From Squalus acanthias (Eukaryota), in NCBI GenBank assembly GCA_030390025.1, contig CM059432.1:53632001-53696000 (forward strand): a DNA stretch of 64,000 nt, in the 5' to 3' direction. A model generated the notes under the pieces. That model was not told the origin of the DNA. It was given only the letters and a program-made list of their open reading frames with translations, and ran no database searches. The translations under genes and the position numbers were made by a program. The stretch's first letter is position 1, and each line of letters begins with the position of its first letter. Of the stretch, positions 761-64,000 are shown piece by piece.

Positions 761-769
761 CATTCTGCC

Positions 770-2040: not shown

Positions 2041-2049
2041 TGAAAAGTC

Positions 2050-7679: not shown

Positions 7680-9640
7680 TTTGTTCTGTGGGTGCTGCAG
7701 GCAAGGAATTGTCATTCCTAGTTGCCTTGAGAAAGTGGTGGTGGGCCTTCTTCTTGAACCACTGCAGTCCTTGTGGTGAATGTATGCCCACAATGGTGTT
7801 AGGGAGGGAATTTCCAGATTATGATCCAGGAATGATGAAGGAATGGTGACATATATCCAAGTCAGGATGTTGGGTAAGTTGGAGGGGAAATTGGAGGTGA
7901 CGGTGTTCCCACAGCATTGCTGCTCTTTTTATTTTTAGTGGTAGAGATTGCAGAAGAGGGAGATGCTGTCAAAGTAGTCTTGGTGAGTTGCTGCAGTGAG
8001 TCCCGTAAATGGTTATGCTGTACAGTGCGCCACTGGTGGAGGGAATGAGTCTTGAGTCTTGAGTCTTGTGGCTGCATCGATCCACGCGAGTGGTGAGTAT
8101 TCCATCACATTCCTGACTTAAGCTTTGTAGATGATGGAGAAGCTTTTAGGGGTCAGAAGATGTGTTACTCGTCATAGAGTGCCCAGCCTCTATGTTGCTG
8201 TTGGAGCACAGTGTTGATACAATGGGCTGGATTTTGATATTGGGGCAGGCTGGGGTCGTGTTATCCACTTTTCGTGTTATCCACCCGACTGCAATTGGAT
8301 GTGGGAGATTGATGCGATTTTCACTTAATTGGGCAATTGAGTTCCAGCATGTGGGAACCCATGACCCAATTAGTGTTTTCAGTCTAAAAGTCGCCTCTGA
8401 TGATGTCATCATTGTTGCTGCATTGAAGGTCTGCAAAGACTGCCTGGCCTTTGCTGTGAGAGGACCTGGAGGCAAAATGAGCAGCAGCCCTAAGTCTGCT
8501 CCCAGATATTTTTGTACCACCACCACCACCACCACTCCCAGATATTTCTATTTCTATTCCTCCTCCTCCTTCTCCTCCTCCTCCTCCTACCACTACCACC
8601 ACCACCAGCTACAACATCATCATCACCATCACATCTCCGTTGTAATAGTGGACCTGCAGCTGATAGTCAGCTATCGAAATGTGCTACCGCCAGGTTTCAC
8701 ATTCGTGGTTCAGAACAAGCGTGCTTCACGTAGAAAAAGGGTTAAAATCACAAAGGCCTTTCAACATGGCATTATAGAGGCAATTTAGTGCTTGTTAAGG
8801 GCCTTAACAGCCTATCCCGCCTCTTAGAGGCAGGACGGACGGAGTCAGGACTAGCAGACACGATTTAATGAAAATTGCGTGGAGGCGGGATGGAGGCGGG
8901 CTTGTACCCACCCGCCAGTTTTCGCAATTTTAACCCTCCACACGCCTCCAAACCCGCCTCCACGGGTCAATGAAAATTCTGTCCATTGTGTCCATTTCAG
9001 CTTCTGGGTCTATGATATTGATGGTGAGGGACTTGGCGATGGTGGTGTTATTGAATGACAAGAGGAAGTGGCTGGGCTTTGTATTGTTGAAAATGGTCAT
9101 TAAATGGCACTTGGGCGGCGTGAATGTTACTTGTCATTTGTCAACAGAAGTCTGGATGTTATAGGCTGGCATAGGCTGCTTCATATGTGGTGTTGTGAAC
9201 GGAGCCGAACACTGTGGAATCGTTAGTGAATAGCCCCACTCATGATCTTATGACAGAAAGAAGGTAATTGATGAAGCAGCATAAGTTCGCTAGGCCAAGG
9301 ATGCTTCCCTGAGGAACTCCTGCATTGATGTCCTGTGGTTGTGATGACTGACCTCCAACAACCACAACCATCTGCCTTTGTGTCAAGTATGACTCCAGCC
9401 ACTGGAGGGCTTTCCCTTTGATCCCCATTGACCTCAGTCTTGTTAGGTCTCCTTGGTGCCATACACGGGTGGTCGAATGCAACCTTAATGTCAAGGGCAG
9501 CTACCCTCAGCTCTCTTCTGGCATTCAGCTCCTGTGTCCATGTGTGGATTAAGGCTGTGTTGTGGTCTGGAGCTGAGTGGTTCTTGCGGAACCTAAATTG
9601 AGCATCGGTGAGCAGGTTATTAGTGAGTAGGTGTTGCTTA
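7680..9640 (-). mobile_element. CR1-group LINE (same family as 4333-5234), older copy split by a MITE
   Basis: Minus translation VWHQG...GIKGKALQWLESYLTQRQMVVVVGGQSSQPQDINAGVPQGSILG; the left part matches the reverse complement of 4600-5200. Confidence 0.85.
8224..8984. mobile_element. Non-autonomous Harbinger-type element containing (CAC)n/(CTC)n microsatellites
   Basis: Ends GGGCTGGATTTT / AAAATTCTGTCC; interrupts the LINE; triplet repeats at ~8516-8630. Confidence 0.7.
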
Positions 9641-14294: not shown

Positions 14295-15940
14295 CTTAAA
14301 GAAATTATTATTAGTAAAAAAACAGTACCAGCAAAATTAATGGGACTAAAAGTCGACAAATCCCAAGGACCAGATGACCTACATCCTAGGGTTTTGAAAG
14401 AGGTGGCCATTGGAATAGTGGATGCATTGGTTGTCATCTTTCAAAATTCTATAGATTCTGAAACGGTTCCTGTAGATTGGAGGATAGCAAATGTAACCCC
14501 GCTATTTAAGAAAGGAGGGAGAGAGAAAACGGGGAACTACAGACCTGTTAGCCTCACATCGTAGTTGGGAAAATGCTGGAATCTATTATAAAGGATGCAA
14601 TAACTGGGCACTTAGAAATAATAGTAAGATTGGGCAGAGTCAACATAGATTTATGAAAGGGAAATCCTGTTTGACAAACCTATTGGAGTTCTTTGAGGCT
14701 GTAACTAATGGAGTAGACAAAGGGGAACCAGTAGATGTGGTGTATCTGGATTTTCAGAAGGCCTTCGATAAGGTCCCACACAAGAGGTTGGTGAACAAAA
14801 TTAGGGCACATGGAATTGGGGGTAATATACTAGCATGAATTGAGAATTGGTTAACAGACAGAAAACAAAGAGTAGGGATAAATGGGTCTTTTTCAGGATG
14901 GCAGGCTGTGACTAGTGGGGTACCGCAAGGATTGGTGCTTGGGCCCCAGCTATTCACAATCTATATCAATGATTTGGATGAGGAGACTAAATGTAACATT
15001 TCCAAATTTGCTGATGATACAAAGCTAGGTGGCAGTGTCAGTTGCGAAGAGGATGTGAAGAGGCTTCAAGGGGATCTCGATAGGCTCAGTGAGTGGGCGA
15101 GAACATGGCAGATGGAATATAATGTGGATAAATGTGAAGTTATCCACTTTGGTAGAAAAAACAGAAAGGCAGAGTATTTCGTAAATGGTGAAAGATTGGG
15201 GAATGCAGATGCTCAAAGGGATCTGGGTGTCCTTGTACATGAGTCACTGAAAGTGAATGTGCAGGTGCAGCAAGACATTAGGAAGGCGAATGGTATGCTG
15301 GCCTTCATTACAAGAGGATTTGAGTAAAGGAGTAAAGAAGTCTTACTCCAATTATATAGGGCTTTGGTGAGACCATACCTGGCGTACTGTGTGCAATTTT
15401 GGTCTCCTTACCTAAAAAAGGATATACTTGCCATAGAGGGAGTGCAACGAAGGTTCACGAGATTGATTCCTGGGATGGTGGGACTGTCGTATGAGAAGAG
15501 ATTGAGTAAACTAGGCCTGTATTCTCTTGAATTCAGAAGAATCAGAGGGGACCTCATTGAAGCATACAAAATTATTACGGGGCTTGATAGGATGGATGCT
15601 GGGAGAATGTTTCCCTTAGCTGAGGAGTCTAGAACCAGGGGCCACAGCCTCAAGATAAAGGTTAGGCCATTCAGGACTGAGATGAGAAGAAATTTCTTCA
15701 CTCAGAGGGTGGTGAATCTTTGGAATTCTCTACCCCAGAGGGCTGTGGAGGCTCAGTCATTGGGTATATTCAAAACAGAAGTCGATAGATTTCTGACTAG
15801 TAAGGGCATCAAGAGGATATGGCGATAGGGCCGGTGAATGGAGTTGAGGCAGAAGATCAGCCATGATCTCATTGAATGGTGGAGCAGACTCGAAGGACCG
15901 AAGGGCCGACTCCTGCTCCTATTTCTTATGTTCTTATGTT
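14295..15940 (+). mobile_element. CR1 LINE (HER1-like), 5'-truncated, RT with several stops
   Basis: GPDDLHPRVLKE, NYRPVSLTS, YLDFQKAFDKVPH, GVPQG, FADDTKL, WNSLP; tail ...CTCCTGCTCCTATTTCTTATGTTCTTATGTT. Confidence 0.95.
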
Positions 15941-27095: not shown

Positions 27096-28190
27096 TTGCC
27101 CTGCTATTGACAGGGGCGGGTTTGGTGAATGGGGAGGGGTGGGCGGAACTTCGGTTGGGAAACCCAGAAGTCCGGGTTTCCTCGCAGGCTACGGAGTTTT
27201 AACTCCACAACACATTTTTTTTTTACAGTAGGTTCCCCGCCCGGAAGTCAGCCTGATTGACAGGAATTTAGGAGAATGAGAGGTGATCTTATTGAAACAT
27301 ATAAGATACTGAGGGGGCTCAACAAGGTAGATGCAGAGAGGATGTTTCCCCTCGTGGGGAAATCTAGAACTCGGGGGCATAGTTTCAGAATAAAGGGTCG
27401 CCCTTTTAGAACTGAGATGAGGAGGAATTTCTTCTCTCAGAGGGTCGTAAATCAATGGAATTCTCTGCCCCAGAGAGCCGTGGAGGCTGGGTCATTAAAT
27501 ACATTTAAGGTGGAGATAGACAGATTTTTGCAAGATAAGGGAGTGTAGGGTTATGGGGAGCGGGCAGGGAAGTGGCTTTGAGCCCAAGATCAGCCATGAT
27601 CTTATTGAATGGTGGAGCAGGCTCGAGGGGCGAAGTGGCCTATTCCTGCTCCTATTTCTTATGTTCTTATGTCCAGGTACGGAGCCTGCAGCTGCTAGTG
27701 GGAGCGTGCGGGGCGAGGTGGGGGGGAAATGGGGTGGTCCGATCACCGGCCCCGGGGGGGTGGGGGGGTTTCAATCCCGGATCGGGGGGTCTTTGTATTG
27801 GGGGCACTGATGATCTAAAGGAAAAAGGTGGGCCGCAGCAAGCCCTTTTACTCCTCCTGGCCCACAAGTCATGCTGCAAAGGCACTTATCTCCTTCTCAA
27901 AGCTGTCCTCGCCTCCCTTGAGCTGCCGGGTTTCCCGAGGCCTGGGAAACCTGGCCGACCAGGATTAAACCTGTAAAACAGGTTAAATCAGAGGCTGCCA
28001 GCCTCATTAAAATATTTAAATACCCAACCTGCCTCCTGGGAGTGGATTGGCTTCTCACCCCTTGTCCCATCTCCTTAACACCTGGAAGTGGATGGGTTGG
28101 AGGCAGGTTGGGGTCGGGGTTTGAGATTTTTAAAGTGTTAACATCTCACCCGACCCCAACTCACCCGTTTTTGGGGGTTAAGATTCAGCC
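27096..28190. mobile_element. Non-autonomous Harbinger-type element split by a CR1 fragment
   Basis: Right arm (CAGCCTCATTA..ATATTTAAA...GGGGGTTAAGATTCAGCCC) resembles 26440-26630 and 39460-39620. Confidence 0.7.
27263..27672 (+). mobile_element. CR1 3' fragment
   Basis: MRGDLIETYKILRG...WNSLPQRAVEA; tail CTATTTCTTATGTTCTTATG. Confidence 0.92.
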
Positions 28191-30199: not shown

Positions 30200-32014
30200 A
30201 TGGCTGAGCCCCAGCACAGGGAGCGAGCCCGCAGATTCTCAGACGCGGCTCTTGAGGCACTGGTGGTGGCCGTGGAGAGGAGGCAAGCTGTCCTTTTCCC
30301 ACAGACTGGCAGGAAGCCCTTGCCATATACATCTCGAAGGTTCTGGCAAGAGATTTCCACCTATGTGACGGCCAGCACTGTGGTCCCCAGGTCGGCAATC
30401 CAGTGCCGCAAGAAGTTTAATGACTTCACATGGCAGGTCAAGGTGAGTGAAGGCTTCAGCAAATACCATATCCCACCATCTGCACCACAAGCATCACACA
30501 CTGCTCAATGCACCACACCCCCAGCACTCACCTACCAACAATCTCTACCTGTCACCACTCAGACCTCATAATCATAGCTTCACTTCACCCTCTCAACCTT
30601 ACCACTGCTGCAACACTCACACCCACATCTCACACCTTGCACACACTGACAGCTATTCAACTATGGCAGGCACATCACCCAAACACATTGCACAACACTC
30701 ACTGACACACTTCTCTTTCTATTGCAGGCCAAGGTCACATATAACAGGAGGGAGCAGCAGTAGACAGGTGGGGGGAAAGCTGCCATCCAGGACCTCAGCC
30801 AACTGGAGGAGCGAGTGCTGGAGATCATTGGACGGGAAGCCATGGAGGCCGTGGCAACTGGCGAGGTTGAAGCCCTTGGGGACAACAATGGTTTGCTCAT
30901 TCCTAATCCTTCATCTCACATCCCACTTCCCCCTCATCCCACAATCTCTTCTCACTTTCAAGCTGCTGATGCTGTATGCATGCGTATCTTGCTTCCCCCC
31001 CCCCGCCCTCTCCCCTCACCATAACCTGACTCTTCTGCTTTCAGCTAATCAAGAACAAGCACCAGACCCGCCTGTCCCCGAGGCGATGGAGGAGAGCGAG
31101 GGGGAAAAGAAGAAGAAGAAGAAGACACAGCGTCACTGCATCTGTCACTCGCAGACACAAGCTCAGAAACTGGCACTGCGCATACTTTAGAGGCTAGTGT
31201 AGAATCGGAATCTACACAGGGTGAAGCACCAGGCATGACTGGGCTGCAGCAAGGCCAGGGGGAAAGGGTAGCTTGGGGTCCAGCTCCCCGGAGGGTGAGT
31301 TCTGCTGCACAGGACTCAGATGAGGACCTCGCTGGGGCGGCCTTCAGAAGAAGGGTGATGGGTATGCACATCCAATTGCCAGGTGCAACGGCAAGCCTGC
31401 CAGTGAGCTCTCGGCAATGTCAAGGAGCATGGAGGAGTCTGCCTCCAATATTGCATGGGGCTTTGTGCAGAACTTGGAGCTCAGAATTTCCAGGCTGGAA
31501 ATGATGGAAAACTCCCAGAGGGACCATGTCGACCCAGAAATGATGGTGCGTGTGATGGGCGATGTCGCCATTGCAGCACAGGCGGAAGCGACGCAATGTC
31601 TTAGTGCTGCCACCCAAGCTCTGACTGCTGCCATCGTGATTGGGTTTACCACCGTCAACTGGGCTTGCAGGGTGTCGCAGCAGCTCAGCAATTGCTAGGG
31701 ATGCTGAGGCGCCGCTCCGGGGGAGTGGGAGTGGGTCAGTGGAGCAGGAACCTGCTGTCCTCTCTCAGGATGACAGTATTCCTGTTCCCACCACTGCCAC
31801 TCCGCTAGTGCCCTTGCCGTTGCCTGTCAGCCAGCCAGCCCAGACTGCTGCCGCCCATTCCGAGGTGCTGCAGTCTACAGCCGGGCTTTCTCGGACTAGA
31901 GCTGCTCTAGGTCGTCCTGCAAGGCCATCCAAAGCCTTGCCCTCTTCCACCAGCCATGCTGCAGCCACTGGGGGAGCACTTCGTAGGAAAGGGCACCCGA
32001 ATGGCAGGCAGTAA
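30200..32014 (+). pseudogene. Harbinger Myb/SANT protein gene; exons 30200-30442, 30728-30890, 31045-~32014
   Basis: Exon 1 MAEPQHRERARRFSDAALEALV...WQEISTYV...RSAIQCRKKFNDFTWQVK|gtgagt. Acceptor ttgcag|, exon 2 AKVTYNRREQQ*TGGG (TAG at 30761). Exon 3 is acidic then Ala/Gln-rich helical, with frameshifts. Confidence 0.9.
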
Positions 32015-32214
32015 AGGATTGCACAAGGGTGAGTAGTTCATATTGTAAGTGTAAATATGTGTAAATTGATTTTTGATAAATTTTTTTAATTTTGTTCGGA
32101 ATCTTTTGTGGTGGCTCTCATTTCAGCTTTGTGCCCAGTAGGATGCTGTGATATTCCGTGACAGAGGGATGGAATGATGGGGATGTGGCGAGCAATAGGG
32201 ATCTGGGGTTTCAT

Positions 32215-33341
32215 TCATTGGAATCGGAGCTTGATGAGGCGTTCACGGACAGCCCATCCGGAAGGGGGATTGACTGCCTGCCTCCTCCCTTCCTCCTCAT
32301 CCTCTTCCTCTTCCTCATCTTCTTCTTCCTCCTCCTCCTCCTGAGGTGGCCCCACAATCCCTGCTGACAAGGGCTGCACCCTAAATAGTGAAGCATGAAG
32401 CAGACCACCACAAAATGGAACACCCGCTCCGCCGAGTACTGGAGGACTCCTCCTGAGCGGGCAAGGCAATGGAACCGTTGGTTCAGTAGCCCGATGGTCT
32501 GTTCAATGATGTTCCTGGTGGAAGCATGGCTCTCATTATATCAGTGCTGGGCACGAGTGGTGGGGTTACAGAGGGGAGTCATCAGCCAGGTGCAGAGCGG
32601 ATAGCCCTTGTCTCTGAGCTGGCAGGTGGCTGGAAGATTGATGGCACACCAGACTGTCGCAGGATGAAGGCATCATGGCTACTGCCAGGATAGCGGGCAT
32701 TGACCATCAGAAAGCGCTGGGCATGGTCGCACACCAACTGCACATTAAGTGAATGGTAGCCTTTGCGGTTACAGCAGATCTCAGGATTGTTTTGCGGTGT
32801 CCGCAAAACGACATGGGTGTAGTCGATGGTGCCCTGTACCAGGGGGAAGCCCGCTATCCTGGCAAAGCTATGTGCTTCTCTTTGCTTAGAGAGAAGAAAA
32901 TGTAGTCCCTTCCCCTGGTGTAGAGAACATCTGTGACCTCCCAGATGCAGCGATGGATGGCGAACTGTGAGATGTTAGCTAAGTCTGCTACCTCAGACTG
33001 GAAGGATCCACTAGTGAAGAAATTGAGGGCCAGGTGACCTTGACTGCCACTGGGAGAGCCGTGGTCGCCCTGCTCTCAGGCTGCAGGTCTGGTTGCAGGA
33101 TGTGGCAGAGTTCTGCGACCACCTCCTTGGTGAAGCAAAGCCTCCTAATATGCTGCTCCTCGCTTAAGTGGATATAAGAAAAGTGCTCTCGGAAGATCCT
33201 AGGTGGGTAAGTCCTCCTGTTGAGATCCCTTCCGGTTCACCTCCTCCTCCCTCTGTATGCATCATCTTGTCATCTTCGCTGCCTCCGGTCCCTCTCCCTA
33301 AGATACTCAAGCGCGAGGGGGACAGCCAGTAGAGCCCCCAT
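32215..33341 (-). pseudogene. Harbinger DDE transposase
   Basis: GTIDYTHV, NRKGYHSLNVQLVCD, ARYPGSSHDAFIL, DKGYP, TRNIIEQTIGLL, acidic tail, RERLIKLRFQ*; frameshifted. Confidence 0.92.
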
Positions 33342-33917
33342 GACTGTAAGCAAATGTTGTGAGCAGAAGCCTTTAAATAAGAATGAAGGCGTTCTCCACT
33401 TGCAACAACACTCCCTGTTACCTCAGAACCTTGAAAGAAGTTAATAAAGCTGCTGGAGTTGCAGAAAGTTGCACAGAGCCAGTCAAACTGAAGAAACATG
33501 TCAGGTGGAAGTTGTTGCTGATGATCCCTTTAAATACCGCTGCTGGAGCCTCCTTCCTGCTTCTCAACGCTTATTCTGCTGGCCGCACTTAAGGCATGCA
33601 GGTAAGTGGAGTGGCGAAGTTGAAACTCGCAGATTGGGCGTCAAGTGAGCGTTGCACTCTCACCGATGTCATGATCTGCATCATCTACATAATGTTGGCG
33701 AGCGCGGACATCGGCAGCTCTGCTGGCCATCTGTAAATGGTAGCTGCCTCGGGGCCCAGGCAGAAGAGCGGCAGTCGCCAACATTTTTTTCCCTGAATCT
33801 GGTGGCAACGGGTGGCGCTAAACCCCCAAATTACTAGGCCTACATTTCTTAAAGGGGATGTGCTTTCTGAAAGAAGCAACTCATTGTTAGTGTAGCTAAG
33901 GAAAGGGGAAGGTACCT

Positions 33918-36120
33918 ATTGATCAACAGGGCAGAGAAAGGGCGCATCAGTTCTCGAAAACAGCACTGGAGGCCTTAATGCATGGGGTTTAAAGGAGCAG
34001 ACAGGTCCTCCACCCACAGGGGGCCAGGAGGCCCTCCAGACAGACTGAGGAAGACAGTGGGAGCAGATTGCTGAAATGGTCAATGCCACCAGTCTCTCCC
34101 CCAGGACCTGGATCCAGTGCTGAAAGAAATTTAATGACCTCATACCAGTGGTCAAGGTCAGTGAATGCATCTTCAAATGTCATATCTCACCAACTGCACC
34201 ATTGGCCTCACACACCACTCAATATATGACACCCGCATCACTCACCTACCAATAATCTCCAGCAATCACGACTCATACCTCACAATCTTAGCTTCACCTA
34301 ACCCTCACACACTTACCATTGTTGCAAGCCTCACACACACATCTCACACCTTGCACACTCTGTTAGCTATTCAACCATGACAGGCCCATCACCCAAACAC
34401 ATTGCACCACACTCACTGACACACTTCCCTTTCTCTTGCAGGCCAAGGTGTCGCATAACTGGCACTATCAGCAGCTAACAGGCGGGAGGCAGTCTCGGCT
34501 GCAGAACCTGACCCAGCTGGAGGAGGTGGTGCTGGATATCATTGGAGGGGCCGTGGCGATCGACGAGGCTGAAAGGATTGATGATGATGGTATTAGGGTA
34601 CGATAGCATAGTGGTTATGTTACTGGTCTAGTAATCCAGAGGCTTGGACTAATGATCCGGAGACATGAATTCAAATACCACATGGCAGCTGGGGAATTTA
34701 ACTTCAATTAATTAAATAAATCTGGAATAAAAGAAAACTAGTATATCAGTAATCATGAAACTACCGGATTGTCGTAAAAACCCATCTGTTTCACTAATGT
34801 CCTTCAGGGAAGGAAATCCACTGTCCTTACTCGGTCTGGCCTATATGTGACTTCACACAGAAATGTGGTTGATTCTTAATTGCCCTCTGAAATGTCCTAG
34901 CGGCTCACCACCACCTACTCGAGGGTAAATAAGGACGGGCAAGAAATGCCTGCCTTGCCAGCGATGCCCACATCCCGTGAATGAATTAAAAAAAAAATCC
35001 TCGTTCTCACATCCCACTTCTCCCTCACCCCACAATCTCTTCTCACTTACAAGCTGCTGTTGGTGTAACATCTTGCTTTCCTCCCCCACCCCCCCCACCC
35101 CCGCTCCCCTCACCTACCCTTGTGCCTTTCCCCTTTCGGATACCAAAGTACTCCATGCAGCCCAACCTTTGCAGGAAGAAGAAGACGAGAAGAGTGATAG
35201 AGAAGAAAAGGCAGGATCTGCACATGGTGAGTCACCGGGCACAAGTGGCCTGCAGCCAGGGCAAGAGCAGGTGCCAGCTCCCCGGATGGCGAGGTCACAC
35301 ATGCGTTCTGCTGCAGAGGACTCAGATAAAGACTTCGATGGGGTGGCCTGCAGAAGAAGGGTGATGGGCATGAACACAGAAATGCTTGTTGCACTGGCAG
35401 GCCTGCCAGAGAGCCTGTTGTCACTGTCAAGGAGCATGGAGGAGTCTTTGCACAGGGCTTTGCGCAGAGCTTGGAGCCCATGATTTCCAGGATGGAAGTG
35501 ATGGGCAACTCCATTAGCGCACTTGTGGACCCAATCATGATGCAGGGTCTGATGGCCGATGTCTCAGCTTCCATTGCAGCACAAGCGGAAGGGTTCCAAC
35601 GTCTGAGTGCTACAGTGGAAGCTCAGACTTCTGTCATGCAGGTTCAGCTTGCTGCCACACAAGCTCAGACTGCTGCAATCGTGGCTGCGTTTACAAGTGT
35701 GGAATGGGGCTTGCAGGGTCTCACAGCAGTCCAGCTATCTGTCTTCCAACAGATTACTAGAATTTTTGAGGCACCACCCCAGGGGAGTGGCAGTGGTTCT
35801 GTGGAGCACGTACCTGCTGTCCTCTCTCAGGCTGACAGCATTCGTACTTCCACCCCTGCCACTCCAGCGGTGCCCTTGCTGTTGCCTGTCAGCCAGCCCA
35901 GACTGCTGTCGCCCATGTGGTGCAGTCTACAGCTGGGCCTTCTAGGCGCAGAGCTGCTCAAGGTCATTCTGCAAGGTCATCTGCAGTCTCCCCCACTGAA
36001 AGTTAGCAGCCTTCCACCAGCCATGCTGCAGCCACTGGGGTAGCACTTCGTAGGAGCACTAGGATAGGCAAAGGCACACAACAGACAGGCACTAAGGGAA
36101 TGCACAAGTGTGATTAGTTG
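33918..36120 (+). pseudogene. Harbinger Myb/SANT gene; exons 33918-34156, 34442-34589, ~35140-36120
   Basis: QQGRERAHQFSKTALEAL...WEQIAEMVNATSLSPRTWIQC*KKFNDL..VK|gtcagt; same intron positions as 30200-32014; start codon mutated. Confidence 0.88.
34595..34997 (+). mobile_element. Full-length tRNA-derived SINE with the CR1-group LINE tail
   Basis: A box TAGCATAGTGG, B-box-like GAATTCAAATAC; last ~100 nt match the LINE tail at 5135-5230; poly-A. Confidence 0.85.
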
Positions 36121-36193
36121 ACTTTATTATGCAGTTTTGGAATTAATCATTTATAAATTATATATGGAATTTTTTTTTGTGGTGGCTTTCATT

Positions 36194-36645
36194 GTGGTGG
36201 CATAGTGGTTAGCACTGTTGCCTCACAGCGCCAGGGACCCGGGTTCAAATCTGGCCTCGGGTGACTGTCTGTGTGGAGTTTGCACATTCTCCCCGTGTCT
36301 GCGTGGGTTTCCTCCGGGTGCTCCGGTTTCCTCCCACAGTCCAAAAATGTGCGGGTTAGGTTGATTTGGCTATGAATAAATTGACCCTTAGTGTTAGGGG
36401 GGGATTAAATATGTGGGGTTACGGGGATAGGATGGGATATGTTAGGGGGAATTAAATACGTGGGGTTACGGGGATAGGGTGGGATATGTGTCGGTGCAGG
36501 CTTGATGGGGATTCTGTGTGAGAAAGCAGGGACAGGGTACTGGATTTGGATGATCAGCCATGATCGTATTGAATGGTGGAGCAGGCTCGACGGGCCGAAT
36601 GGCCTACTCCTGCTCCTAGTTTCTATGTTTCTATGTTTCTATGTT
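36194..36645 (+). mobile_element. V-SINE (HE1-type) followed by a CR1 3' tail
   Basis: tRNA head TGGCATAGTGGTTAGC...GGGTTCAAAT, V-domain GTGGAGTTTGCACATTCTCCCCGTGTCTGCGTGGGTTTCCTCCGGGTGCTCCGGTTTCCTCCCAC, (TTTCTATG)n tail. Confidence 0.92.
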
Positions 36646-36736
36646 TAGCATGGCGGCCAAGAGGATGCTGTGATGTTCTGTGACAGAGTGATGGTAAGAT
36701 GGGAAAGTATTGAGCAAGGGGGTTTTGGGGTTTTAT

Positions 36737-37802
36737 TCAGGGGAACCGGAGTCTAATGAGGCGCTTGCAGACAGCCTGTCCAGAACCGGGATTTGCAGGA
36801 TGTCTCCTCCCTTCCTTCTCCTCCTCCTCCTCCTGAGGTGATCACGGGACCCATGGTGGCAAGGGCTGAGCCCTCATGATGGCCAAGTTGTGAAGGACGT
36901 AGCAGACCACCACGAATTGGGACACCTGCTCCGGCGGGTACTGGAGAGCTCCTCCCGAATGGGCAAGGCAGCGGAACCGTTGCTTGAGCACCCCGCTGGT
37001 CTGCTCGATCACGTTCCTTGTGGCAGCATAGCTGTCACTGTAAGATTGATGGCCACGAGTGGTGGGGTTGTGGAGGGGCGTCATCAACCAGGTGTAGAGT
37101 GGATAGCCTTTGTCGCCTAGCAGCCACGCTCAGGCTTGACATGGTGGCTGGAAGATTGCTGGCACAGTGGACTGGCACAGGATACTGGGCATTCACCATC
37201 ATTATGTGCTGGGCGTGTTCACACACCAGCTTCACATTAAGTGAGTGGTACCTTTTATGGTTACAGTACATCTTACCATTGATATGCAGCGCCCGCAAAG
37301 CCACGTGTGTGCAGTTGATGGCACCCTGCACCATAGGGAAGCCCGATATCCTGGCAAAGTCTGTTTTGCTCTGTTCAGAGAGAAGACAATGAAGTCCCTT
37401 CTCCTTGATTAAAGAGCCTCTGTGACCTCCCGGATGTTGCGATGGACGGCAAACTGCGAGACGTTTGCTATGTAGTCTGTTCCAGCCTGGAAGTATCCAC
37501 TGGCAAAAAAATTCAGCGCCACGGTCACCTTGAGGGCCACTGGCCCTGCTCTGAGGCTGCAGGTCTGGTTTCAAGAGGTGGCAGAGTTCTGTGACCACGT
37601 CCTTGGTGCAGTGGAGCCTCCGAACACACTGCTCCTGGCTTAGGCGCAGGTAGAAGTGCTCCCTGAAGACCCTAGGTGGGTAAGGCCTCTTCCTGAGAGC
37701 CCTCCTCCTCCTCCCTCTGCAAGCAGCTTGTCTTCTTTGCTGTCCCTGCTCCATCTCCCTGTCATGCTGCAGCACGAGGGGGACTGCAACTAGAGCCCCC
37801 AT
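36737..37802 (-). pseudogene. Harbinger DDE transposase
   Basis: RPYPPRVFREH, CVRRLHCTKDVVTELC, GFPMVQGAINCTHVAL, YHSLNVKLVC, TRNVIEQTSGVLKQRFRCL, LHNLA; frameshifts. Confidence 0.92.
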
Positions 37803-38876
37803 GACTGGGAGCAAGTGGTCTAGTCAGAGGCCTTCCAGCAGCAGCCAACACCTTCCCAATGTCCAGCAGCACTCAGTGCACACTTTAACAACTTTGTAAA
37901 TGTCTTCCAGCAACCAAGTATTCATACAAACTGTGCAAGAGGCAGTACAAGAGAAATAATCAACTTACCTGCAAGTTGGATGTATCCCTTTAAATAGCGC
38001 TGATGAGGGGTCCCTCGTGCAGCTGAACGCATGTTCAGCTGTGTGTATTTAGGAGAGCATGTTGTTTGGAGCGGCAATGTTCAAAATGGCAGGTCGTGCA
38101 TAAAATCAGCGTTACACATTGACTAACGTCACGATCTGCCTACTCTGCATACTGCCAGCGCATGCATGTCCCGCCCACGCCATCACCCTCACCAAGATGG
38201 CGAACAGCGAGGGCCGCGCCGGAAGTGGGCGGAAGCAAAGTGGACGTCAATTTCTTTTCCAAACCGCCCTTAACTACCGGCGCTAAGGTGTTGAATTTTG
38301 CGGCCCTTTTCTCTAAAGAAAAAAGCTCCAACCTGTTCAATCTTTCCCGATAGCTGTAATCTCTCTCTGAAAATATCACAATCTTCTTGTGAATCTGCAT
38401 CTCAATCTGAAACAAGATGAACAGAAAAGAGTTATGTTTGAAGCTGTTTTGCGAAAAAAACGTCTTACAAAGACCACAAATCTTTAAAAGTGGAGGTCCT
38501 GGTTCTATCCTTGCTTAGAGATGCCATGGAATAATTTGGAGATGCACAGCACTAACACTATTGAAATGTTTTGCATAGCACCATGTTACACTTGTGCTGA
38601 TGATTCATGGAGTTCAATCTTGCAAATACAGATGAGTCCAAAAATGTAATAATCACATCTGTGACGCCATTCTGGAAAGGAATCGATGTTTCAGCTGTAT
38701 ACAATTCCCCCAGAGGCCACGTGCTGTTCTTTAAATTGATTGAGCTGTTAACTTTCTGCTGTCATTGATGTTAGATGATATGATCATTCTGTATTCTGTT
38801 CTGATACTAACAAATCCTAGGTTCCCATTGGTTACTCAGGCATTACTTTTTCAAATATATTAACAACAGGATCAGT

Positions 38877-45120: not shown

Positions 45121-46899
45121 TTATTTCATTGATGGTTTTGCAAAGTCAGAATCACAAAGCAACTCAGCAAAGCCAATGTCCCTCTGTCAATAACAGCCAG
45201 TCCTTCTACATTCATCACTTCTATGCCTTTCTCATCCGTGATCAGTGACTTGCTCTGTGTTGCCTTATTGAACTCACTGATATAACAACATAAAAAATAG
45301 GAGCAGGAGTAGGTCATACGGCCCATCGAGCCTGCTCCGCCATTCAATAAGATACCTAGGCTGACATCTGCTTCAGGTGATGTTGGCCAAATAGTGACTA
45401 TGCTCCTTGCAGGTCGGGTTGGCTCCGAGATGACACACCTAATGATGGAAGATTGGAATCAAATCAACCCTCCATGGGAGATGTGGTAATCTGAGACAGG
45501 CAGGTCCATAGTTTTCCAGGGCATTGTTGATGACTAAGCAGCCACATTGGTTTATTAATGCGGCCAGCGGTAAACTTGTTACTGGGGGATTGGGATTCTT
45601 CCTATTTAGCTGCAGATAATCCTAACCTTCCCATGGAGCAGGATGATCTTTCTAAAAAAATGGGTATTACTGGTTGGAATTGTTAGGGTATAAATTTGTT
45701 TTGGGTGGTGGTGCCCCTTTTGGGCTACCGTCAAAGAAGAATTTATATCTCTTTAGTTGTAATGATAAATATTGTATAAGAATGCAGCTTTAAATATATG
45801 TAATGGTGTTATATTTATAAGTGTGCACTGCTTAGAATTAATTGTACAATTTGGGCACTGTAACATTTTCTTGGTGAAGTTTATTATCAAAGTAAAGATG
45901 GTGAAATGGCAACCAGTATTGTTAGGGACACTTGTGCTAATTCATTGTAAATTACATCTAAATTGGATTTCTGCTCAGACATAAATTACACTTTCCTTTT
46001 TGCATATATGAATACTGCAGCCTCTTTACTGAGCCATTGCCAGATTTTGTGTGAAGTCATGATTATCTGAAAAGGTATATTCACTTTCTTCATTAAATGA
46101 GTCACATTTGAATTGCCTTAGATTTATAATTATGATTTTTAGTTAAGGAATATCACAGATAGAAGCTGATAATTAAATACACAAACGAAATCTGGACGAG
46201 GAGCAAACCCGGGAGTTACAACTATCTGTTTGCTTCACACATACAAGCAGCGCGTAAGCATTACAGATTGAGTGTAACTTGCTCACATATTTATGATTAA
46301 GCTCTATAGATGGCAACTAATATAGTTCATTATTATGTTTTTAAAAAAATAATAATGTTCCCAGATTTTAATTTTCAAAGCATCTTGTATCTCTTTATGA
46401 CAGAATTTTGACTGGGTACCTATTTTCAGTCAATAAGTTACAGAAATTCAGAAAAGGTGTATCAAAAACAAATTTACTTCAAAGTTTAGAATCTTCTCTA
46501 CTAAACACAGCCCAAATTTGCCCTCATGTGCTATTTACAAATACATATTTTAATGCAAATCACTGATCGAAGACAAAAAAAGGTAGACCAGTTTGAAGTG
46601 ATCACAGAGGAGATACAAGAGGCCAGACTCATAAATAATAGTGTGGAAACTAAGAAGAAATATTTTTCGTGTGTTCGGCAGGTGAAGATAACAATTCCTG
46701 TAATCACTATATGTGGTGACATTGTAAGTGCAGTCGTGAAGATATTTTCTGGTATTTCAAGCTAAATTGAAATCCCATTGTAAACCAAAAAATTGTAAAC
46801 CAAACATGTTGCTGATTTCACTGGAAATACTGAATAGAGAAATTCTTCACAGATGCATTTACACATAGTGACCAGAGGAATTCGTACTGTTTTGAAATG

Positions 46900-55520: not shown

Positions 55521-56847
55521 AAAAAGGATAAGATTTGGTTGTGATTAACAATCCAGTCAAAGTGAGTCTGTTATCAGCAACACTAATAATGCATGGGACA
55601 TAACTTGGAATTATTACCCTGCAATACTGACTGGTAACTCATATTTGGAATTTTAGGCCCCACATTTTCAAAAGTATATCATCCAAATTATGAAGATAAA
55701 AGCAGATGGATTGGGGATAACGTAAATATAAGCAGGTTACTTAACAAACTGTGACAGCAGAATTGAAGATGTACATATAAAATTAACAAACTTCAAGTCG
55801 GACAAGAGGATAGAAGGATTTTGTTTTCCTGCAGTGGAATGCACACCTATCAAAAGCATTTAATGCGATAGTCATTAACCCCATTAAAAAGAAATTGGAT
55901 GAATATCTGATTAAGAGCAGGATTTAAAGATACAGATGGGAATTTTAACCCCCAAGAATGGGTGGGTTGGGAACAGGTAGGGGTGAAAATTTGTGATTTT
56001 TAGAGCAGGATTGCAACCCGGTTCCAACGCACCCACATTCGGGTTTAACAGAGGCAGGTTTGGATGCCTATGAGTAACCTATTCATTGAGTCGGGGATTT
56101 AATAACTGGATGCTTATTGGCTCAATTAACGTCTTTTTAAATTGCTTTTAACTTGGCTTTAAATTTAACCTGAGCAGCACAGGTTTCCCGGGGCTCGGGA
56201 AACTAACCAGGGAAACGGAGGCAAGTTTGAGCAGTAGTTCAGATGGGTATTTAAACTTCTCATTGTTCTATCTGAATAAAACCTCACTTATTGCAGCTGG
56301 TGTCTCAGTCCCCTCTGGCAAATGTTTGGCAGAGAGTGCGTGTGTGGATACAGCTTTTTACAACCTTTGAGGATTTTAAATTGACAAGATCAGGACGGGA
56401 GGTGCATTAGATGTGTTTCACAGTACATCAGAAGAGGAAGTCCATCACCATTCAGGGCAGCCACGACATGCTGTGGTGGGATCAGCATGTGCGCAGGAGG
56501 TAGTTACACAGGAGGGAGTTGCACAGGAGGGAGTTGCACAGGAGAGGAGCTGAGGTCACAGGAGGCACTAGCCATATCACTGGGTTTACAGACAGATGCT
56601 TAGCTTCCTTGACTATTCGGTAGAGCAGTATTTCCGCAGGCTGAGGTTGACACGTTAAGTGATGGCAGACATCTGCAGCCTCCAACAGGAAGACCTGCTC
56701 CCTGCTGGACCTGGTGGCGATGCATTACCAGTGGCTGTGAAAGTGACCACTGCCATCAACTTTTACACCTCCAGATCCTTCCAGGGTGCTACTGGAAACA
56801 TATCCAGGATCTCCCAGTCGGCTGCACAGAAATGCATAAGGCAGGTC

Positions 56848-57048
56848 GGTGCAATTGATGTAGGGTCAATTGTCAATTGTTAGATTTAAAATCTAAGATT
56901 GAGATTTTTTGTTAACCAAAGGTATTAAGGGATATGGGACAAAGGTGGATATATGGAGTTAGGTCACAGATCAGCCCTAATCTCATTGAATGGCAGAACA
57001 GGCTTGAGGGGCTAAATGGCCTACTCCTATTCCTATGTTCCTACATTT
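56848..57048 (+). mobile_element. CR1 3' tail insertion
   Basis: GATCAGCC..ATCTCATTGAATGGC...ATGGCCTACTCCT tail; splits CIRQV|TDGLF. Confidence 0.88.
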
Positions 57049-57594
57049 ACTGATGGCTTGTTTGCCAGGGCTGATAATTTTATACATTTCCCATGAAGAA
57101 AGTAGCCAGAATGAGCAGGTACTTGGATTCACCTCTCTGGCTGGATTCCTACAGGCACAGGGTGCTATCAACTACATACACGTGGCAATCCGAGCACCAC
57201 CACTGCAACCAGGAGTTTTTATAAACCGCAAGGGATTTTCGTCCATCAATGCACAGTTGGTGTGCAACCACAAGAGGAGGTTCATGCAGGTCTCTGAGAA
57301 CTGTCCTTGGGAGCGGTCATGATGCCTTCATACTGAGGCAGTCCAACATCCAAGACCTTTTCATTCCAGGAAGCAGACTTAAGCGTTGGCTCATAGGAGA
57401 CAAGGGATACCCACTTCAAACTTGGCTCATGACACCTGTGAGGAACCCCACCTAATGAGACACAAGAACGCTACAACGAGAGTCACATGACCAGCAGGTG
57501 TGTCATCGAGCAAGCCATTGGAATGTTGAGGATGCACTTCAGGTGCCTAGACAGGTCTGGAGGTGCCCTTCAGTACTCATCAGCCAGGGTGTCC

Positions 57595-57887
57595 TTCTTC
57601 TTTCTTAGGTAGTCTCTTGGAACCGAGGATGACTTGCTTCCAAACTAAGAATGAGTTCTCAGGTGACTGATGAGTCCAATGCGGGACCTACAGTCTCTGT
57701 CACAGGTGGGGCAGATGGTGATTGAAGGGGCAGGTGGGTGGGGTGATTAGGTTGACGTGCGCTCCTTCCGCTGTTTGCGCTTGGCTTCCGCTTGCTCCCG
57801 GCGAAGAGACTGAAGGTGTTCGGCGCCTTCACAGATGCTTCTCTTCCACTTTGCGCGGTCTTGGGCCAGAGATTCCCAGGTGTCGGT
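57595..57887 (-). mobile_element. RTE-clade LINE 3' fragment
   Basis: Minus WESLAQDRAKW...CPTCDRDCRSRIGLISHLRTH (C2H2), GAA-type tail, perfect 8-bp TSD GGGTGTCC. Confidence 0.92.
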
Positions 57888-58463
57888 GGGTGTCCAGAAT
57901 GATAGTGGTGTGCTGCGTCATGCACAACATTGTCCAGCAGAGAGGATTGCATGTGAGGAGGACAAAGGGGCTTGTTACTCATCTTCGGATGAGGAGAACA
58001 TAGAGGAGGAAGAGGAACAGGAGGAAGAGGAGCAAGAGAAGGAGAATGAAGATGGGGCACCCATCGCTAGATCAGCTGCTTACGTTGCTGCCCAGATGAC
58101 AGGGATGCTGTAATATTGCAAGGGTTCACTGAGAGTGAAACAACAAATGAAATCCTACCGCCTGCTCCCACCACCAGGACACCGCCATCTCCCTTTGCAC
58201 TAAACAATCCTTCAACCACTCATCCACCCATTGCACATCTGCCCAATGGATCCCGTCATGTATTGACATTCATCACAAAACAAATGGTAGGGCGAGTTGG
58301 CACTCAGGATGCAGTAATGGGCAAGATGTGGAAATGGTGCTAATCCATAAATTATATGAGGCATTATAAAAATAGGAAACTTAATAACATAACATTTTGT
58401 CAAACACCTATGTGCATACCCTTGGTGAATTACAATTTCTTCAAATTACACTTCCTACCCCTT

Positions 58464-60585
58464 CTACATAGTGCATCCCATGTGGCTTAGCCGATACAGA
58501 GGCAGGCTGCTCAGATCCTTGCCCTTACTGCTGAGATGCTTTTGGCCTACGCCCTCTGGGTTTTGGAGCCCAGGGGTCCTGCCAAAGACTGCTCCACCTG
58601 CATCTGTGCAGGAGCAGACTCGGCCATCGGAAGACGAGGCAGCATGTCGGTTACTGGCTGAGAAGGGGGCAATGGATGAGAAGTGGGAGCGATTTGAGAG
58701 GAGTTCCCACTTCAATGTCCCCTTTCACCATCATCCCTCTACTACACCAGCGCCACATCACTCCTACCACTCTGCTGCAAACCAGATTGGTGAAGATCAG
58801 TAATGTATTGTAAGGCCACAGATAAGGTATCCATCATCCTGTTTAAGGCGGCAGACAAGTTGGCATCCAAAGTCTGTACGGCCGTGGTCATGGCCTGTAT
58901 GGACTCATTTAAGAGCCTTCCTTGAAGCTCCATGGAGATATTCTCGGAATTCCCTGCACCACCAATCTACTAGTGATCAAGTTGGACTCCTCCTTCCTCT
59001 TCACTATTGTGGAGAGCATGCGTGGCACAACTGTCAGTACCTGGCTAAGTTGTTGATGCGCCTCCAGCATTCTCTTTCTCAACAATAGCCCCTGGGGTTC
59101 AGCATCTGTATCCAGCTGAGCAGAGCTTGGACAGGATTGCGCCCCCCGATGCGGACACTCCGCAGCTGTCCCTGCCACGAGTGTCTGCTCGTGCTCACTT
59201 GTGAGGTGTGAATCACCAGGTGAAAACCCAACTAGCTGTTGAAGTGGAACCATCAAAGTGCGAGTATCTGTGCTGGTGCATAGCTGTATGTCCAGTGATG
59301 GTGCATCCTCAGAAGGATCTCTGAGGTCCTCTGAGACATCCTGCAGCTCCAATAGCACTCAAGAAGCTCGACACCATCCAGGACAAAGCAGCCCGCTTGA
59401 TTGGCACCCCATCCACTACCTTAAACATTCACTCCCTCCACCACCGGCGCACTGTGGCTGCAGTGTGTACCATCTACAAGATGCACTGCAGCAACTCGCA
59501 AAGGCTTCTTCGGCAGTACCTCCCAAACCCCCAAACTCTGCCACCTAGAAGGACAAGGGCAGCAGGTGCATGGGAACACCACCACCTGCAAGTTCCCCTC
59601 CAAGTCACCATCCTGACTTGGAAATATATCGCCATTCCTTCATAGTCGTTGCGTCAAAGTCCTAGAACTTCCTCCCTAACAGCACTGTGGGAGTACCTTC
59701 ACCACATGGACTGCAGCAGTTGAAGAAGGCGGCTCACCTCCACCTTTTCAAGGGCAATTAGGGATGGGCAATAAATGGTGGCCTTGCCAGTGACACCCAC
59801 ATCCCAAGAACGAATTTTAAAAAAAATCGTCCTCATGGATGTCCTGCGACACTTGCTGTATGCGCGAAGGCCCTGGAAGACAAAAGAAAGGGATATGATT
59901 TAGTTGTGGCAAAGTCACAATCTTGACAATCACCATACTCAGTCTTCTCATAGTTGAGTCATTGATGAAATTAAGTCAGCATATGTGTGTCGGAGATATT
60001 TGTAATTCTGTCACCAGCTATCTCCCAGCTTCCTGTCTCTCCACCTCCGACTGAGAGGGATGCAGACGTGTCACTTATCTCCAGGGCGTCCTCCTCTGCA
60101 TCAGTGAGCTGGACTATTTGTGGCAGTTCACCTCCAGTCCTGTCCCTCTCCCTTGTGTTTTGTGCTCTCTTCTCCTATAAGGGGCGATAAAATAGAGCTG
60201 TGAGTGAGTGAAGGTCAGGTATTCCCCGATGGATGCAGTGCATTCGGTGAGGGTGACTGTGAGACAGCTGCATCACATTGCATCAGGATTGGGGTGAGTG
60301 GCAACGGTGGATGGATAAATGGGGAGGTGACGAAGTGCATAGAACGTGAAGGCTGGGTGATGCTGAATGTTGAGTGGGTGTGAGGAGTGATGTGATGGAG
60401 AATGCTTGGCAAGACAGAGTTAAGGGGGGGTGGGGTTGCTAAAAGCACAGGATGCAGTTGAATCAGCAAATATGCTATTTTTTCCTGACCTGGTTAGGTC
60501 ATTAAACTGTTTCCTACATTGCATTCAAGATCTGGGCACAATGCTCCTGCTGCTCACCTTCTCAGCTACCTCCAACTACACCTCA
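58464..60585 (-). pseudogene. Harbinger Myb/SANT gene; exon 1 end ~60585-60480, exon 2 60174-60015, exon 3 from 59872
   Basis: LEVAEKVSSRSIVPRS*MQCRKQFNDLTRSGK; ttatag|EKRAQNTRERDRTGG...|gtgaca; tcttccag| acceptor. Confidence 0.88.
59340..59826 (+). mobile_element. CR1-group LINE 3' fragment inserted in Myb exon 3
   Basis: Close match to 4745-5230, with poly-A. Confidence 0.92.
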
Positions 60586-60633
60586 CACCTCCAACCATTC
60601 AGCAATCTTGATACCCGCTCAGCTAAGTACTGC

Positions 60634-61864
60634 TGTAGAGATTCACATATCTCTGGTAAACAGGATCGAGTGCAAACCAATATGGTGGGTTTGTTGCATT
60701 TAATCAGAGTTTAGGACGGAATATAACACACTAGTAATACAGCAAAAACATACGACTTGCAACAAGCAGCTTGTACCAGACCCGATCAGACAGACGGCTG
60801 GCATGCGTGAGCAGTTCTCTGGCGTCTGGCCTCTCTCTCTCTCTCTCTCTAGGGCCTTCGATGGTGAGCATGGGATCACTCTCAAAAGAGCATTCGACCA
60901 GCACAACTTCTCTTTTTAACTTCTGTTTGGCTCTCCCTTCCACCGTCTGTGTGCAAGCCCTTGGGGTGTCACTTTTTATTCTCTTTTTAGGGGTGGGCCT
61001 GAGGCCAAGTTATTGACAAGACCATTTAACCTATAGAGGTTCCTCCAAAACTTCATCAACCAATGACAGCTCAAGTTCTTTGTGTTGGTGCTTGGATGAA
61101 AGTCCTCCCCAAAGAGGGTCTCATTACTTCATCCTTGTTTTTACATTTTGAAGGTTCCTCCATTGGAATCCATCTTATCTCTTTTTACTCTCTCCCCTTA
61201 ACCCAGCAAGTACAAGGCCCGGCCCTGTCCTTCTGGCCCCAGCCAGAGCTGTCGCACATTAACCAGTCGCTATCTCACCATTCTGACCTTCATGAATCCC
61301 TCCCCTTTTCTGCTGTGATCTTTTCTCTCAGAACTTTTACATAGCCAGACTTCCCATGAATTACGCTGCTTTCAGTGTTCAATAGCTGTTGTTTTATACC
61401 TTTTTTTCCCTTTCAAAATACATGGCAACTTGCAGCTGCTTGGGCTATCTCAGCTTCATCTAGCAAATGGCCCATTCTAAGATGGATACCTTAGCCTCCT
61501 CAAATTCCTTTCATTCTATGTCTTTTCCTAATTAACTTTTAATTATCTTCACAAGCAGTTCTGCTAAACAAACTCCAAATTCTATCTGTGGAGATTATAA
61601 TATGATTATTAGTAATAATGGAAGAAACATAGGTTGGGCCTTTACTGGCCAAATTAAAGATACATTAACAAAGTCAAAACCCTAACTTACAAACAACAGA
61701 TAACCAGCCTGGCAGGACCATCCTATGAGCCCCCGTGTGGAATGTTTATGTTTCACCTAATCTAACTGATTAAAAAGACTGTCTCAAATTCTAATGCAAG
61801 CTTTCCAGGAAAATGAAACTTATCATTTAAACACAGTATTTTTAGGCACCCCTAGTTTCTAACA
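60634..61864 (-). repeat. 3' LTR (~1.23 kb) of the retrovirus-like element
   Basis: Minus termini TGTTAGA...TCTACA, immediately preceded by PPT-like AAGGTGGGGAC. Confidence 0.75.
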
Positions 61865-62094
61865 GTCCCCACCTTGAGAGGGAGAAAAACTCTATTTCGA
61901 CCTCTCATTTACGAACCTCTACCAACCATGTCAACTCAAAATTATTGGTTCGACGGTTCAATTCACTATTCCGGTGTTCCAATTCTGCCCCGCCTGGGGT
62001 ATCCTCTGTCTTCTATCTTTCCTGATCTTACCCCGCCTGGGGTCTCCTCTACGTTGTCTCTGATTTTCATCCGCCATTAATTCATTAGTACAGT

Positions 62095-62461
62095 TAGTCA
62101 TGATTATAGATACACATTTGGCTTATGCACCAAAGTCTTATTACACAGATTACATATATCAAATATACGGTCATTACAAGCTGGAGAACTACCAGAGCAC
62201 ATGAAATGATACGAACCTAAGGGTGAGCTGATATATAAACCCCAATATCCCACCAGTGTGAATCGTCCCTTATGCTGTCAATTTCAATATCTATTCTCGA
62301 GTTGTCTTGCTCCAAAACATAAAATTGCTTTGGGGAGGAGTTCAGTCGCATCACTGAGCTCACTGAATTCCTCAGACAACAGGAGAATGTCGTACCTGAA
62401 TTGTACCACATAACTGTGCAGCTCATACTGGATCGTATTGGCTTTTCCCACGCTCTGTTAC
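62095..62461 (-). pseudogene. env: Truncated env-like C-terminus (helical region, WWD motif, TM helix)
   Basis: Downstream of a tgttttgtag acceptor: ...LSEEFSELSDATELL/KQFYVLEQDNSRIDIEIDSIRDDSHWWDIGVYISAHP*VRIISCALVVLQLVMTVYLIYVICVI, located between integrase and PPT. Confidence 0.6.
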
Positions 62462-62614
62462 CTACAAAACACAATTATTACAGTCACAGTTATAATTCAG
62501 TATTACAATAATTAGCACGTCGACTAAGTACATACATTTCAAGTGACAATGATGCAAAACAAATAATACAGAAATTGTGAAGAAAGCTACAGTTTATCAT
62601 CTAACCAGGAATAT

Positions 62615-64000
62615 TTATTCTTTCACAGTTTTCAACTGATTGATATGGTACCATTTAGCCACCTTGGCCCTCCCCTTTTTCCCAGGGAATTGGACCAGAT
62701 AAACCGAAGGACTGGCCCTGTCAATAATCGGGAAGGGGCCATTCCACTTTGGTTCGAAGCAATGTTGCTTCTTCCCATAGTTTAGTACCATTATAACATC
62801 TCCCACTTGATACTCAAATGGCCGGACCTTCTTGTTGAAGTATTTCTTTGCCTGGTTTTTTGATTTGCCTGTTTGTGTAGCTACAAACATGTTAGTTTGT
62901 TCTATGTTCTCTACCACCATTTCAAGCCATTTTTGGTTGGCAATTCCCTGTAGTAAGGGTGTGGATGAAGGGGTTAACAGATGGACTGGCATTCGCATTA
63001 GTCGCCCGGTCATAGCCTGGTAGGGTGAGATACCCGTTGTGCTATGCGGGGTGAATCTAATAGCCATTAGACACATTGGCAACATACTGAACCATTTGGT
63101 GGGGTGATCTGCACAAAATTTGTTTAACAGAGTTTTCAGAGTTCGGTTTCCTCTTTCCACTACACCAGATGATTGTGGCTGATGGGAGATGTGAAGTCTA
63201 TGCGAAATACCCATTATCCATTGCAATTTGGTAAAAATTTGGGCGGTAAAGTGTGATCCCTGATCACTATCAACTTGAATTGGCACTCCCCACCTGCAGA
63301 TCACCTCACCCAATAGAAGGCGAGCTGCTGTGAATGCAGTGTTTGTTTTACATGAAAAAGCCTCCATTCATTTAGTAAATTTATCAACTATAACCAGGCA
63401 ATACCGCAAGCCAGAAGGTCCTGTAGGTAAGGGCCCTATAAAATCAATTTGAAGGTGGGTCCACGGCCCATCGGGAGGAGGGGGACTGCGCAACAGTGCC
63501 CGATTAGTGTGGGCACTTGGATTGTGCTGTAAACAGGGTAGACAACGATTCACCCTATGAGTGGCATCTGTGATGCAATCGGGATACCATACAAATTTGC
63601 GTAGTTTCTGAACAGTTGCGTCAGCTGAATAGTGCCCTCCTACCGGATGTGAGTGCAGGAGATCAAAAATTTCGGATGCCATGGATGGGGGAACACAGAC
63701 AACTGGGAGATCAGATGATAGCCACCGCATACGGGGGTTGAACATTAACAGGGGAGCAGCTTCCCCAGACTGATCCGGAGCCAATTGTGTGTCCGCAGCC
63801 CATGGAGTGGGCTGAGGTAACGGACATCCATTCTGATGCCATGCAATAACAACTGCATAGGGGGAATAACTGGACTGGAGGGAAGGGAGGTCAATGTCCC
63901 CACCTTGGATACTCGAGACTGATCCTAAGGGAGGGGTAGGGGCTTGCCAGAGGTCACCGTTAACAGCGGCGTCCTTGGCAGCATGATCTGCCTGTGAGTT
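62615..64000 (-). pseudogene. pol: pol 3' part: RNase H C-terminus plus integrase, one in-frame stop
   Basis: Single frame from the window edge: NSQADHAAKDAA, HHCC (H..GGH...CLPC), LQIDFIGPLP, VDSDQGSHF, PQSSGVVER, WNGPF; TGA at 63368-63370. Confidence 0.93.

Follow-up and report, generated by a model that had tools for sequence, protein, structure and literature searches.

The described element closest to the one reported here is CmiERV lineage I, from Callorhinchus milii (elephant shark) scaffold 2, which clusters with the snakehead retrovirus (SnRV) in Han (2015, PMC4422223). SnRV-like endogenous retroviruses (ERVs) make up the clade Huo in Xu et al. (2018, PMC6001957). The lokiretroviruses are told apart from these by a motif in the reverse transcriptase (RT). 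In the published alignment the SnRV, foamy, gamma and epsilon RTs carry LPQG and the Loki RTs carry PFG (PMC7947760). The same work also describes integrase domain swapping as known among retroviruses (Wang and Han 2021, PMC7947760).

We have analysed a retrovirus-like element at one end of a window of 64,000 nucleotides from Squalus acanthias; by the window we mean the whole of this stretch of DNA. A sequence-only reading had proposed a lokiretrovirus, or a related unclassified lineage, in a cartilaginous fish. In our analysis the element is probably a defective ERV of the basal SnRV-like grade (clade Huo or class III) and close kin to CmiERV lineage I, with a reduced env slot and a history of amplification in the germ line. 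The lineage is indeed basal and poorly classified, yet it is not without a described member, which is CmiERV lineage I.

Anatomy of the provirus fragment

The element lies on the minus strand. Read from position 64000, it begins with the 3′ end of pol (12 RNase H residues, a linker, the HHCC domain, the DDE core and a GPF-type C-terminus), followed by a spacer of 753 nt between the pol stop and the polypurine tract (PPT), the PPT itself and an LTR of 1231 nt (Table 1). The integrase, the transmembrane (TM)-bearing segment, the PPT and the LTR are all where the sequence-only reading had placed them. The window edge (64000–63965, minus strand) reads NSQADHAAKDAA, and the integrase follows in frame. 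The rest of pol, with RT and tether, lies outside the window, beyond 64000, as do gag, the 5′ LTR and the G of the ‘GNxxAD’ motif.

Table 1. Coordinates of the provirus fragment and its immediate flank within the window
Feature	Position	Strand	Evidence or remark
RNase H (retroviral-type, second), C-terminal helix of Pol	63965..64000	-	Alignment to P0003, a dual-RNase-H Pol, at the end of its RNase H
Integrase HHCC zinc-binding domain	63515..63694	-	Pfam PF17921 Integrase_H2C2, E 2.1e-11
Integrase catalytic core (DDE)	63176..63466	-	Pfam rve, E 2.6e-13; one in-frame stop inside
GPF/SH3-like domain at the integrase C-terminus, with the pol stop	62615..62770	-	PF24626/PF22938 below cut-off; aligns to the end of P0003
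T-rich spacer, 44% T, ending in candidate splice acceptor AG at 62463-62462	62462..62614	-	Acceptor inferred
Short frame in env position	62097..62474	-	85 open codons, stop 62219-62217, TM-like segment
Polypurine tract	61865..61875	-	Directly 5′ of the TG of the LTR
3′ LTR, 1231 nt	60634..61864	-	TG...CA ends; ATTAAA at 60704, 71 nt from LTR end
Flank outside provirus: decayed Myb/SANT-like frame	60462..60633	-	PF13837 E 0.0047, below cut-off

The stop inside the integrase core, at 63370–63368, is the only one in frame there, and the terminal pol stop codon occupies 62617–62615 (both minus strand). This copy is dead, with stops in the integrase and in the short frame of the spacer, and what the element preserves of an ancient retrovirus is a disrupted 3′ half. 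We call the LTR from its own sequence marks, because neither a second LTR nor a target-site duplication is found within the window. The depth of matching contigs rises at the LTR boundary in all three contig runs. An Rfam search of positions 59500–64000 returned 0 hits. Just upstream of the PPT there is a short tandem duplication (61980–62050); other copies show back-jumps in the same interval, and the number of tandem units therefore varies within the family.

The few RNase H residues at the window edge bear on the class of the element. An N..AD..AK tail before the integrase is present in 23 of the 26 stored Pols with two RNase H domains and in 2 of the 145 with a single one, which makes it a reasonable indicator of the second, retroviral-type RNase H. 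As such it points to retroviruses at large and is not confined to Loki. Judged by sequence, then, the element reads as a retrovirus with a retroviral-type RNase H and not as an ordinary Gypsy element. Here the earlier reading stands, and the trees described below agree.

Nearest relatives

The integrase was compared with protein collections of several size classes. Among proteins of 808–2305 aa the best of 30 matches was a Xenopus tropicalis Pol, P0003 (UniRef100_A0A803JYW4), which is 53% identical over 458 aa and carries RT, tether and second RNase H. Among those of 253–807 aa the best four of 14 matches, at 51–55% identity, came from C. milii (two), Pristiophorus japonicus (one) and a Logan contig (one). 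The nearest integrases thus include those of Callorhinchus and Pristiophorus, and a cartilaginous-fish host, as suggested by the sequence-only reading, is likely. With P0003 as the query against 1.84 billion representatives, relatives from frog, coelacanth, bowfin and turtle were added. Identity of the integrase is 51–58% within its own clade and 36–37% to Loki-type proteins. For SnRV the value is 29%, for the foamy viruses 29–32% and for NYNRIN 27%.

The match to NYNRIN deserves a comment, as the integrase had been described as ‘NYNRIN-like’. That term holds as a database label only. The mammalian gene NYNRIN (CGIN1) derives from a related RNase H–integrase module (E 1e-36 to 1e-29), and differs from the window element both in its low identity and in its place on a long branch with other amphibian and coelacanth elements, apart from the shark sequence. 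In the integrase tree the row nearest to mammalian NYNRIN is a frog element, the P0053 cluster from Aquarana catesbeiana and Lithobates pipiens (24 members, Pols of 1207–1218 aa annotated ‘NYNRIN-like’), on a long branch and at an unsupported 88/12. It is a possible lead on the donor of NYNRIN.

A search of IMG/VR with the integrase found no relative. A metagenome scan yielded, from 180 candidate stretches, two loci of a more distant LPQG-type retrovirus (36–37% identity) that do not group with the window element in the integrase or the RT tree. These metagenome contigs (L019:664–6012 and L020) hold intact gag and pol genes of a basal LPQG-type retrovirus with one stop between them; in L019 only about 370 nt follow pol on the 3′ side. 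The integrase of this retrovirus groups loosely with class I-like rows and its RT is basal.

Phylogenetic placement

Trees were built from rows hand-picked among 238 stored proteins and 21 loci, giving 47 rows and 265 columns for the integrase and 36 rows for the RT. They are drawn without class II and ERV-L references, and P0227 was too short for the RT tree. The three Loki references and that for SnRV were recognised from their resemblance to sequences in the published RT alignment, not from a database label. The RT of the element is outside the window, and its position was therefore read from two relatives, P0003 and P0152. This proxy placement is weakened by the fact that retroviruses can swap integrase domains.

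In the integrase tree the window element belongs to a clade of seven rows (100/99, starred), the others being Pristiophorus, two C. milii sequences, the Logan contig, X. tropicalis P0003 and Amia. The C. milii cluster P0033/P0049 shares this clade with it at 96/94 and 100/99, both starred. Outside the clade lie the three Loki-type rows, the foamy viruses with SnRV, the class I-like ERVs and ten Gypsy rows; the Gypsy and Loki rows form separate starred clades. In the RT tree, which repeats the published shape with Loki as sister to all other retroviruses, P0003 and P0152 stand among the non-Loki retroviruses (98/98, starred). The clade of the window element does not join SnRV in either tree, the basal fork in which it sits being unresolved in both.

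An ordinary Ty3/Gypsy retrotransposon might be suspected from the GPF-type C-terminus of the integrase and from databases that name its matches ‘Gypsy retrotransposon integrase-like’. We regard it as extremely improbable. All full-length close relatives possess a tether and a second RNase H, and the trees set the Gypsy rows apart at 99/99 for the integrase and 100/100 for the RT, both starred. Integrase and proxy RT both fall outside Gypsy.

The lokiretrovirus proposal fared less well. It would make this the first lokiretrovirus in a cartilaginous fish, with the remnant of a paramyxovirus-F-like Env. The element shares with Loki a dual RNase H and a GPF-type integrase that databases label CGIN1 or NYNRIN-like; Loki-type Pols are its next-nearest group by integrase, and on the RT, joining the P0003 group to Loki was not rejected, with a borderline AU test (p=0.0503). 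However, the tether and second RNase H, of which the window itself contains the RNase H tail and the relatives the tether, are not diagnostic of Loki, because they are common to all retroviruses. Forcing the window element into Loki on the integrase costs 61 log units and is rejected (AU p=4e-5). The RTs of P0003 and P0152 have LPQG, not the PFG of Loki, and by eye the published Loki-Xtr RT and integrase are plainly unlike P0003 (PMC7947760). The same source records Loki in 0 of 3 chondrichthyan genomes (Wang and Han 2021). With nothing in the spacer to set against this (see below), we think a lokiretrovirus very unlikely. An N..AD..AK tail next to a NYNRIN-like integrase is insufficient to identify one.

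Kinship with CmiERV lineage I is argued from sequence. In the supplement to PMC4422223, the N- and C-terminal residues of the C. milii integrase P0033 are, by eye, the same as those of the CmiERV scaffold 2 integrase, and the CmiERV-I RT has LPQG, again by eye. The PPT/LTR junctions of CmiERV-I and the window element are alike in 20 of 21 letters. From the integrase termini, the LPQG motif and the junction together we conclude that the window element is a relative of a described SnRV-like ERV. Its link to SnRV follows from the placing of CmiERV lineage I in Han 2015 (PMC4422223).

The same unusual pair of hosts raises another possibility, that of the shark and frog foamy-like group (CmiFLERV/XtrFLERV), which might even be the CmiERV-I lineage under another name. 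C. milii together with X. tropicalis also makes up that clade, and pol alone was recognised in its shark elements, as Aiewsakun and Katzourakis report (2017, PMC5512871). Among solved structures, our integrase is best matched by the prototype foamy virus integrase (E 4e-31). Against this, neither the integrase nor the proxy RT joins the foamy clade, which consists of four to five mammalian foamy viruses in our trees. The branch of P0003 is short, and that of XtrFLERV is described as extremely long (PMC5512871); the spacer is also unlike 16 foamy Env or Bel frames. We consider a foamy-like identity quite unlikely, and the SnRV-like placement is retained in what follows.

The env position

The sequence-only reading saw an env-like remnant between pol and the PPT. 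‘Env-like’ is an interpretation here and not an observed feature. The frame in this position comprises 126 codons with one stop, and its TM-like segment is a hydrophobic 19-mer (62195–62139, minus strand; mean KD 2.71). An equally hydrophobic segment arose in 5 of 1000 shuffles of the whole interval and in 40 of 1000 that kept local composition; the segment is therefore probably, not certainly, coding. Of all the env signatures examined in the spacer, it is the only one that beats chance. There is no ISD and no CX6CC motif in the 753 nt, and the lone R.[KR]R match is in a different frame and 3′ of the TM. An env gene downstream of pol, which Han (2015) takes as the criterion of an ERV, is not recognisable in the spacer. 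The spacer frame has no Pfam hit at E<=1, PF00523 included, and no homologue among proteins of 69–221 aa, a size range too short to take in a parent env of full length. When 305 stored proteins and frames, with the Env of foamy viruses and of SnRV among them, were compared by tblastn with 60634–62617, nothing credible emerged; the 282 weak matches had a best E of 0.003 over 20–24 aa, in the LTR. An HR2-like heptad before the TM was also considered as a candidate and rejected, with 914 and 1252 of 2000 shuffles as strong and real Envs at 1.6–2.1 against 1.0.

The proposed resemblance to a pneumovirus-type fusion protein is not borne out: no F-like or other env signature was seen in the spacer, no motif matches the Loki Env texts in the accessible part of the PMC7947760 supplement, and nothing ties the spacer to that class of protein. 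The frame may be an env remnant, whose env origin is putative, or a small accessory ORF. If the former, the spacer may be the 3′ end of another type of env after an internal deletion.

The accessory option can be put in a stronger form, in which the SnRV-like placement holds and the frame encodes a genuine small spliced membrane protein that replaced env and is under selection. The acceptor-like site, the frame with its single stop and the TM segment would fit such a protein. In two of three contig runs, in addition, no part of the element is deeper than the spacer, which also ranks with the deepest parts in the third, and the spacer lacks the ISD and CX6CC that an env remnant of the CmiERV-I type would keep just upstream of the TM. 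On the other side, 60 of 1000 shuffles yielded an open stretch of 85 codons, the homologue search was negative, and family copies vary by small indels in the spacer frame, so that its upstream part is insecure. We hold a selected accessory protein to be a minor possibility.

Family abundance and insertion site

The reduced ERV is part of a larger family. Among the matches listed, 16 runs of seven organisms contain 31–48% of the sampled words, 20 of the 24 listed rows contain some part of the element, and none is an RNA dataset. Three contig runs, from three species, cover all 30 bins of 59800–64000; a fourth run (X22) gave only 4 reads. The summed contig depth, which is not a copy number, is 380–8858 over pol (with most single listed contigs at 4–35) and 3826–108779 over the spacer bins 62197–62478, the spacer being 5–50 times deeper than pol in the contigs of these three species. 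These values point to a multicopy family in several related species, and to an excess of spacer and LTR over pol, such as derivatives that had lost pol would produce. The integrase break of the present copy is absent from most of the matched copies. A short env slot throughout the family is graded as likely only, because none of the listed contigs bridges pol and spacer and depth does not equal copy number.

The flank of the provirus is itself a repeat. The Myb/SANT match beside the LTR and a DDE_Tnp_4 fragment about 3 kb from it (57225–57455, E 1e-6) suggest insertion into a PIF/Harbinger element, and the provirus probably sits in an older DNA transposon of this kind. Decayed PIF/Harbinger-like elements are seen at 56650–60633 and at about 30400–37800. 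The latter region (30.4–37.8 kb) has two diverged copies about 4–4.5 kb apart, with a DDE_Tnp_4 match below cut-off at 37035–37823 (E 7e-5).

Two further repeats occur in the window. The first (3924–5241, 7725–8207 and 59342–59824) is present in several copies, with a frame resembling the reverse transcriptase of a LINE at its 3′ end. The second is an 87-nt repeat found in both orientations (15853–15939, 27586–27672, 36550–36636, 45253–45353 and 56967–57053), which presumably resembles the 3′ tail common to shark SINEs and LINEs.

Discussion

Plus-strand priming at the PPT, DDE integration at TG...CA ends and the expression of env-slot genes by splicing are established retroviral biology. The present element would have replicated by this usual cycle, with a PPT-primed plus strand and a DDE integrase acting on its TG...CA ends. 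At some stage its env slot appears to have shrunk to about 0.75 kb, a stretch that contains an acceptor-like site along with a short frame bearing a membrane anchor, and a working envelope was most likely no longer made. Multiplication then most likely proceeded by germ-line reintegration to high copy number, leaving many copies along with pol-poor derivatives. The present copy, inside its older DNA transposon, would have decayed.

With these results a basal group of retroviruses that has been thinly sampled, and whose members are mislabelled ‘Gypsy’ or ‘NYNRIN-like’ in databases, gains a shark family present in many copies and several species. If the short env slot is family-wide, the family would be a cartilaginous-fish case of envelope loss alongside high copy number; Magiorkinis et al. 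reportedly observed in 2012 that envelope loss accompanies high copy number. Selection on the small membrane frame, should there be any, would make the frame a new accessory protein of retroviruses and provide a testable instance of env replacement at the base of the Retroviridae. In our literature search, which took in few subscription papers and not Repbase, no SnRV-like shark family with a short env had been described.

A wider proposal combines these ideas. Sharks, chimaeras, bowfin and frogs might share a basal lineage between the lokiretroviruses and the classical retroviruses in which the env slot has been swapped, with a gamma-type env in the chimaera member and, in the high-copy shark family, either a conserved, spliced small membrane protein or a non-gamma envelope tail, belonging to no known family and retained as the shark elements multiplied. 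We offer this as an unlikely alternative to the SnRV-like reading preferred here.

Comparison with known systems

P0003 and the window element are alike in integrase. The frog Pol is laid out as PR-RT-tether-RNase H-integrase and its reading frame is intact, unlike that of the window element; P0003 is itself unclassified. The RT of the snakehead retrovirus (L021/P0093) resembles that of the window element's relatives, e.g. at 46% identity to P0003, whereas its integrase is the more distant one noted above. It also has an env frame of 1134 codons and accessory frames, none of which matches the spacer. Lokiretroviruses, beyond their separate integrase clade and PFG-type RT, have a full F-like Env in which a signal peptide, an RXKR site, a fusion peptide and a coiled coil are recognised (PMC7947760); none of these was seen in the 753 nt of the window.

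The closest comparison is with CmiERV lineage I. The integrase (P0033) is 55% identical overall and 70% in the core. Both elements have an acceptor-like site just 3′ of the pol stop (by eye in CmiERV-I) and, about 70 nt short of the end of the LTR, a poly(A) signal. They differ in the LTR, which is longer in the window element, and above all between pol and PPT, which are about 1.6 kb apart in CmiERV-I, with a gamma-type env in between (ISD and CX6CC, by eye), and 753 nt apart here. The shark element is unusual only in the short, membrane-protein-like stretch where an env gene should be.
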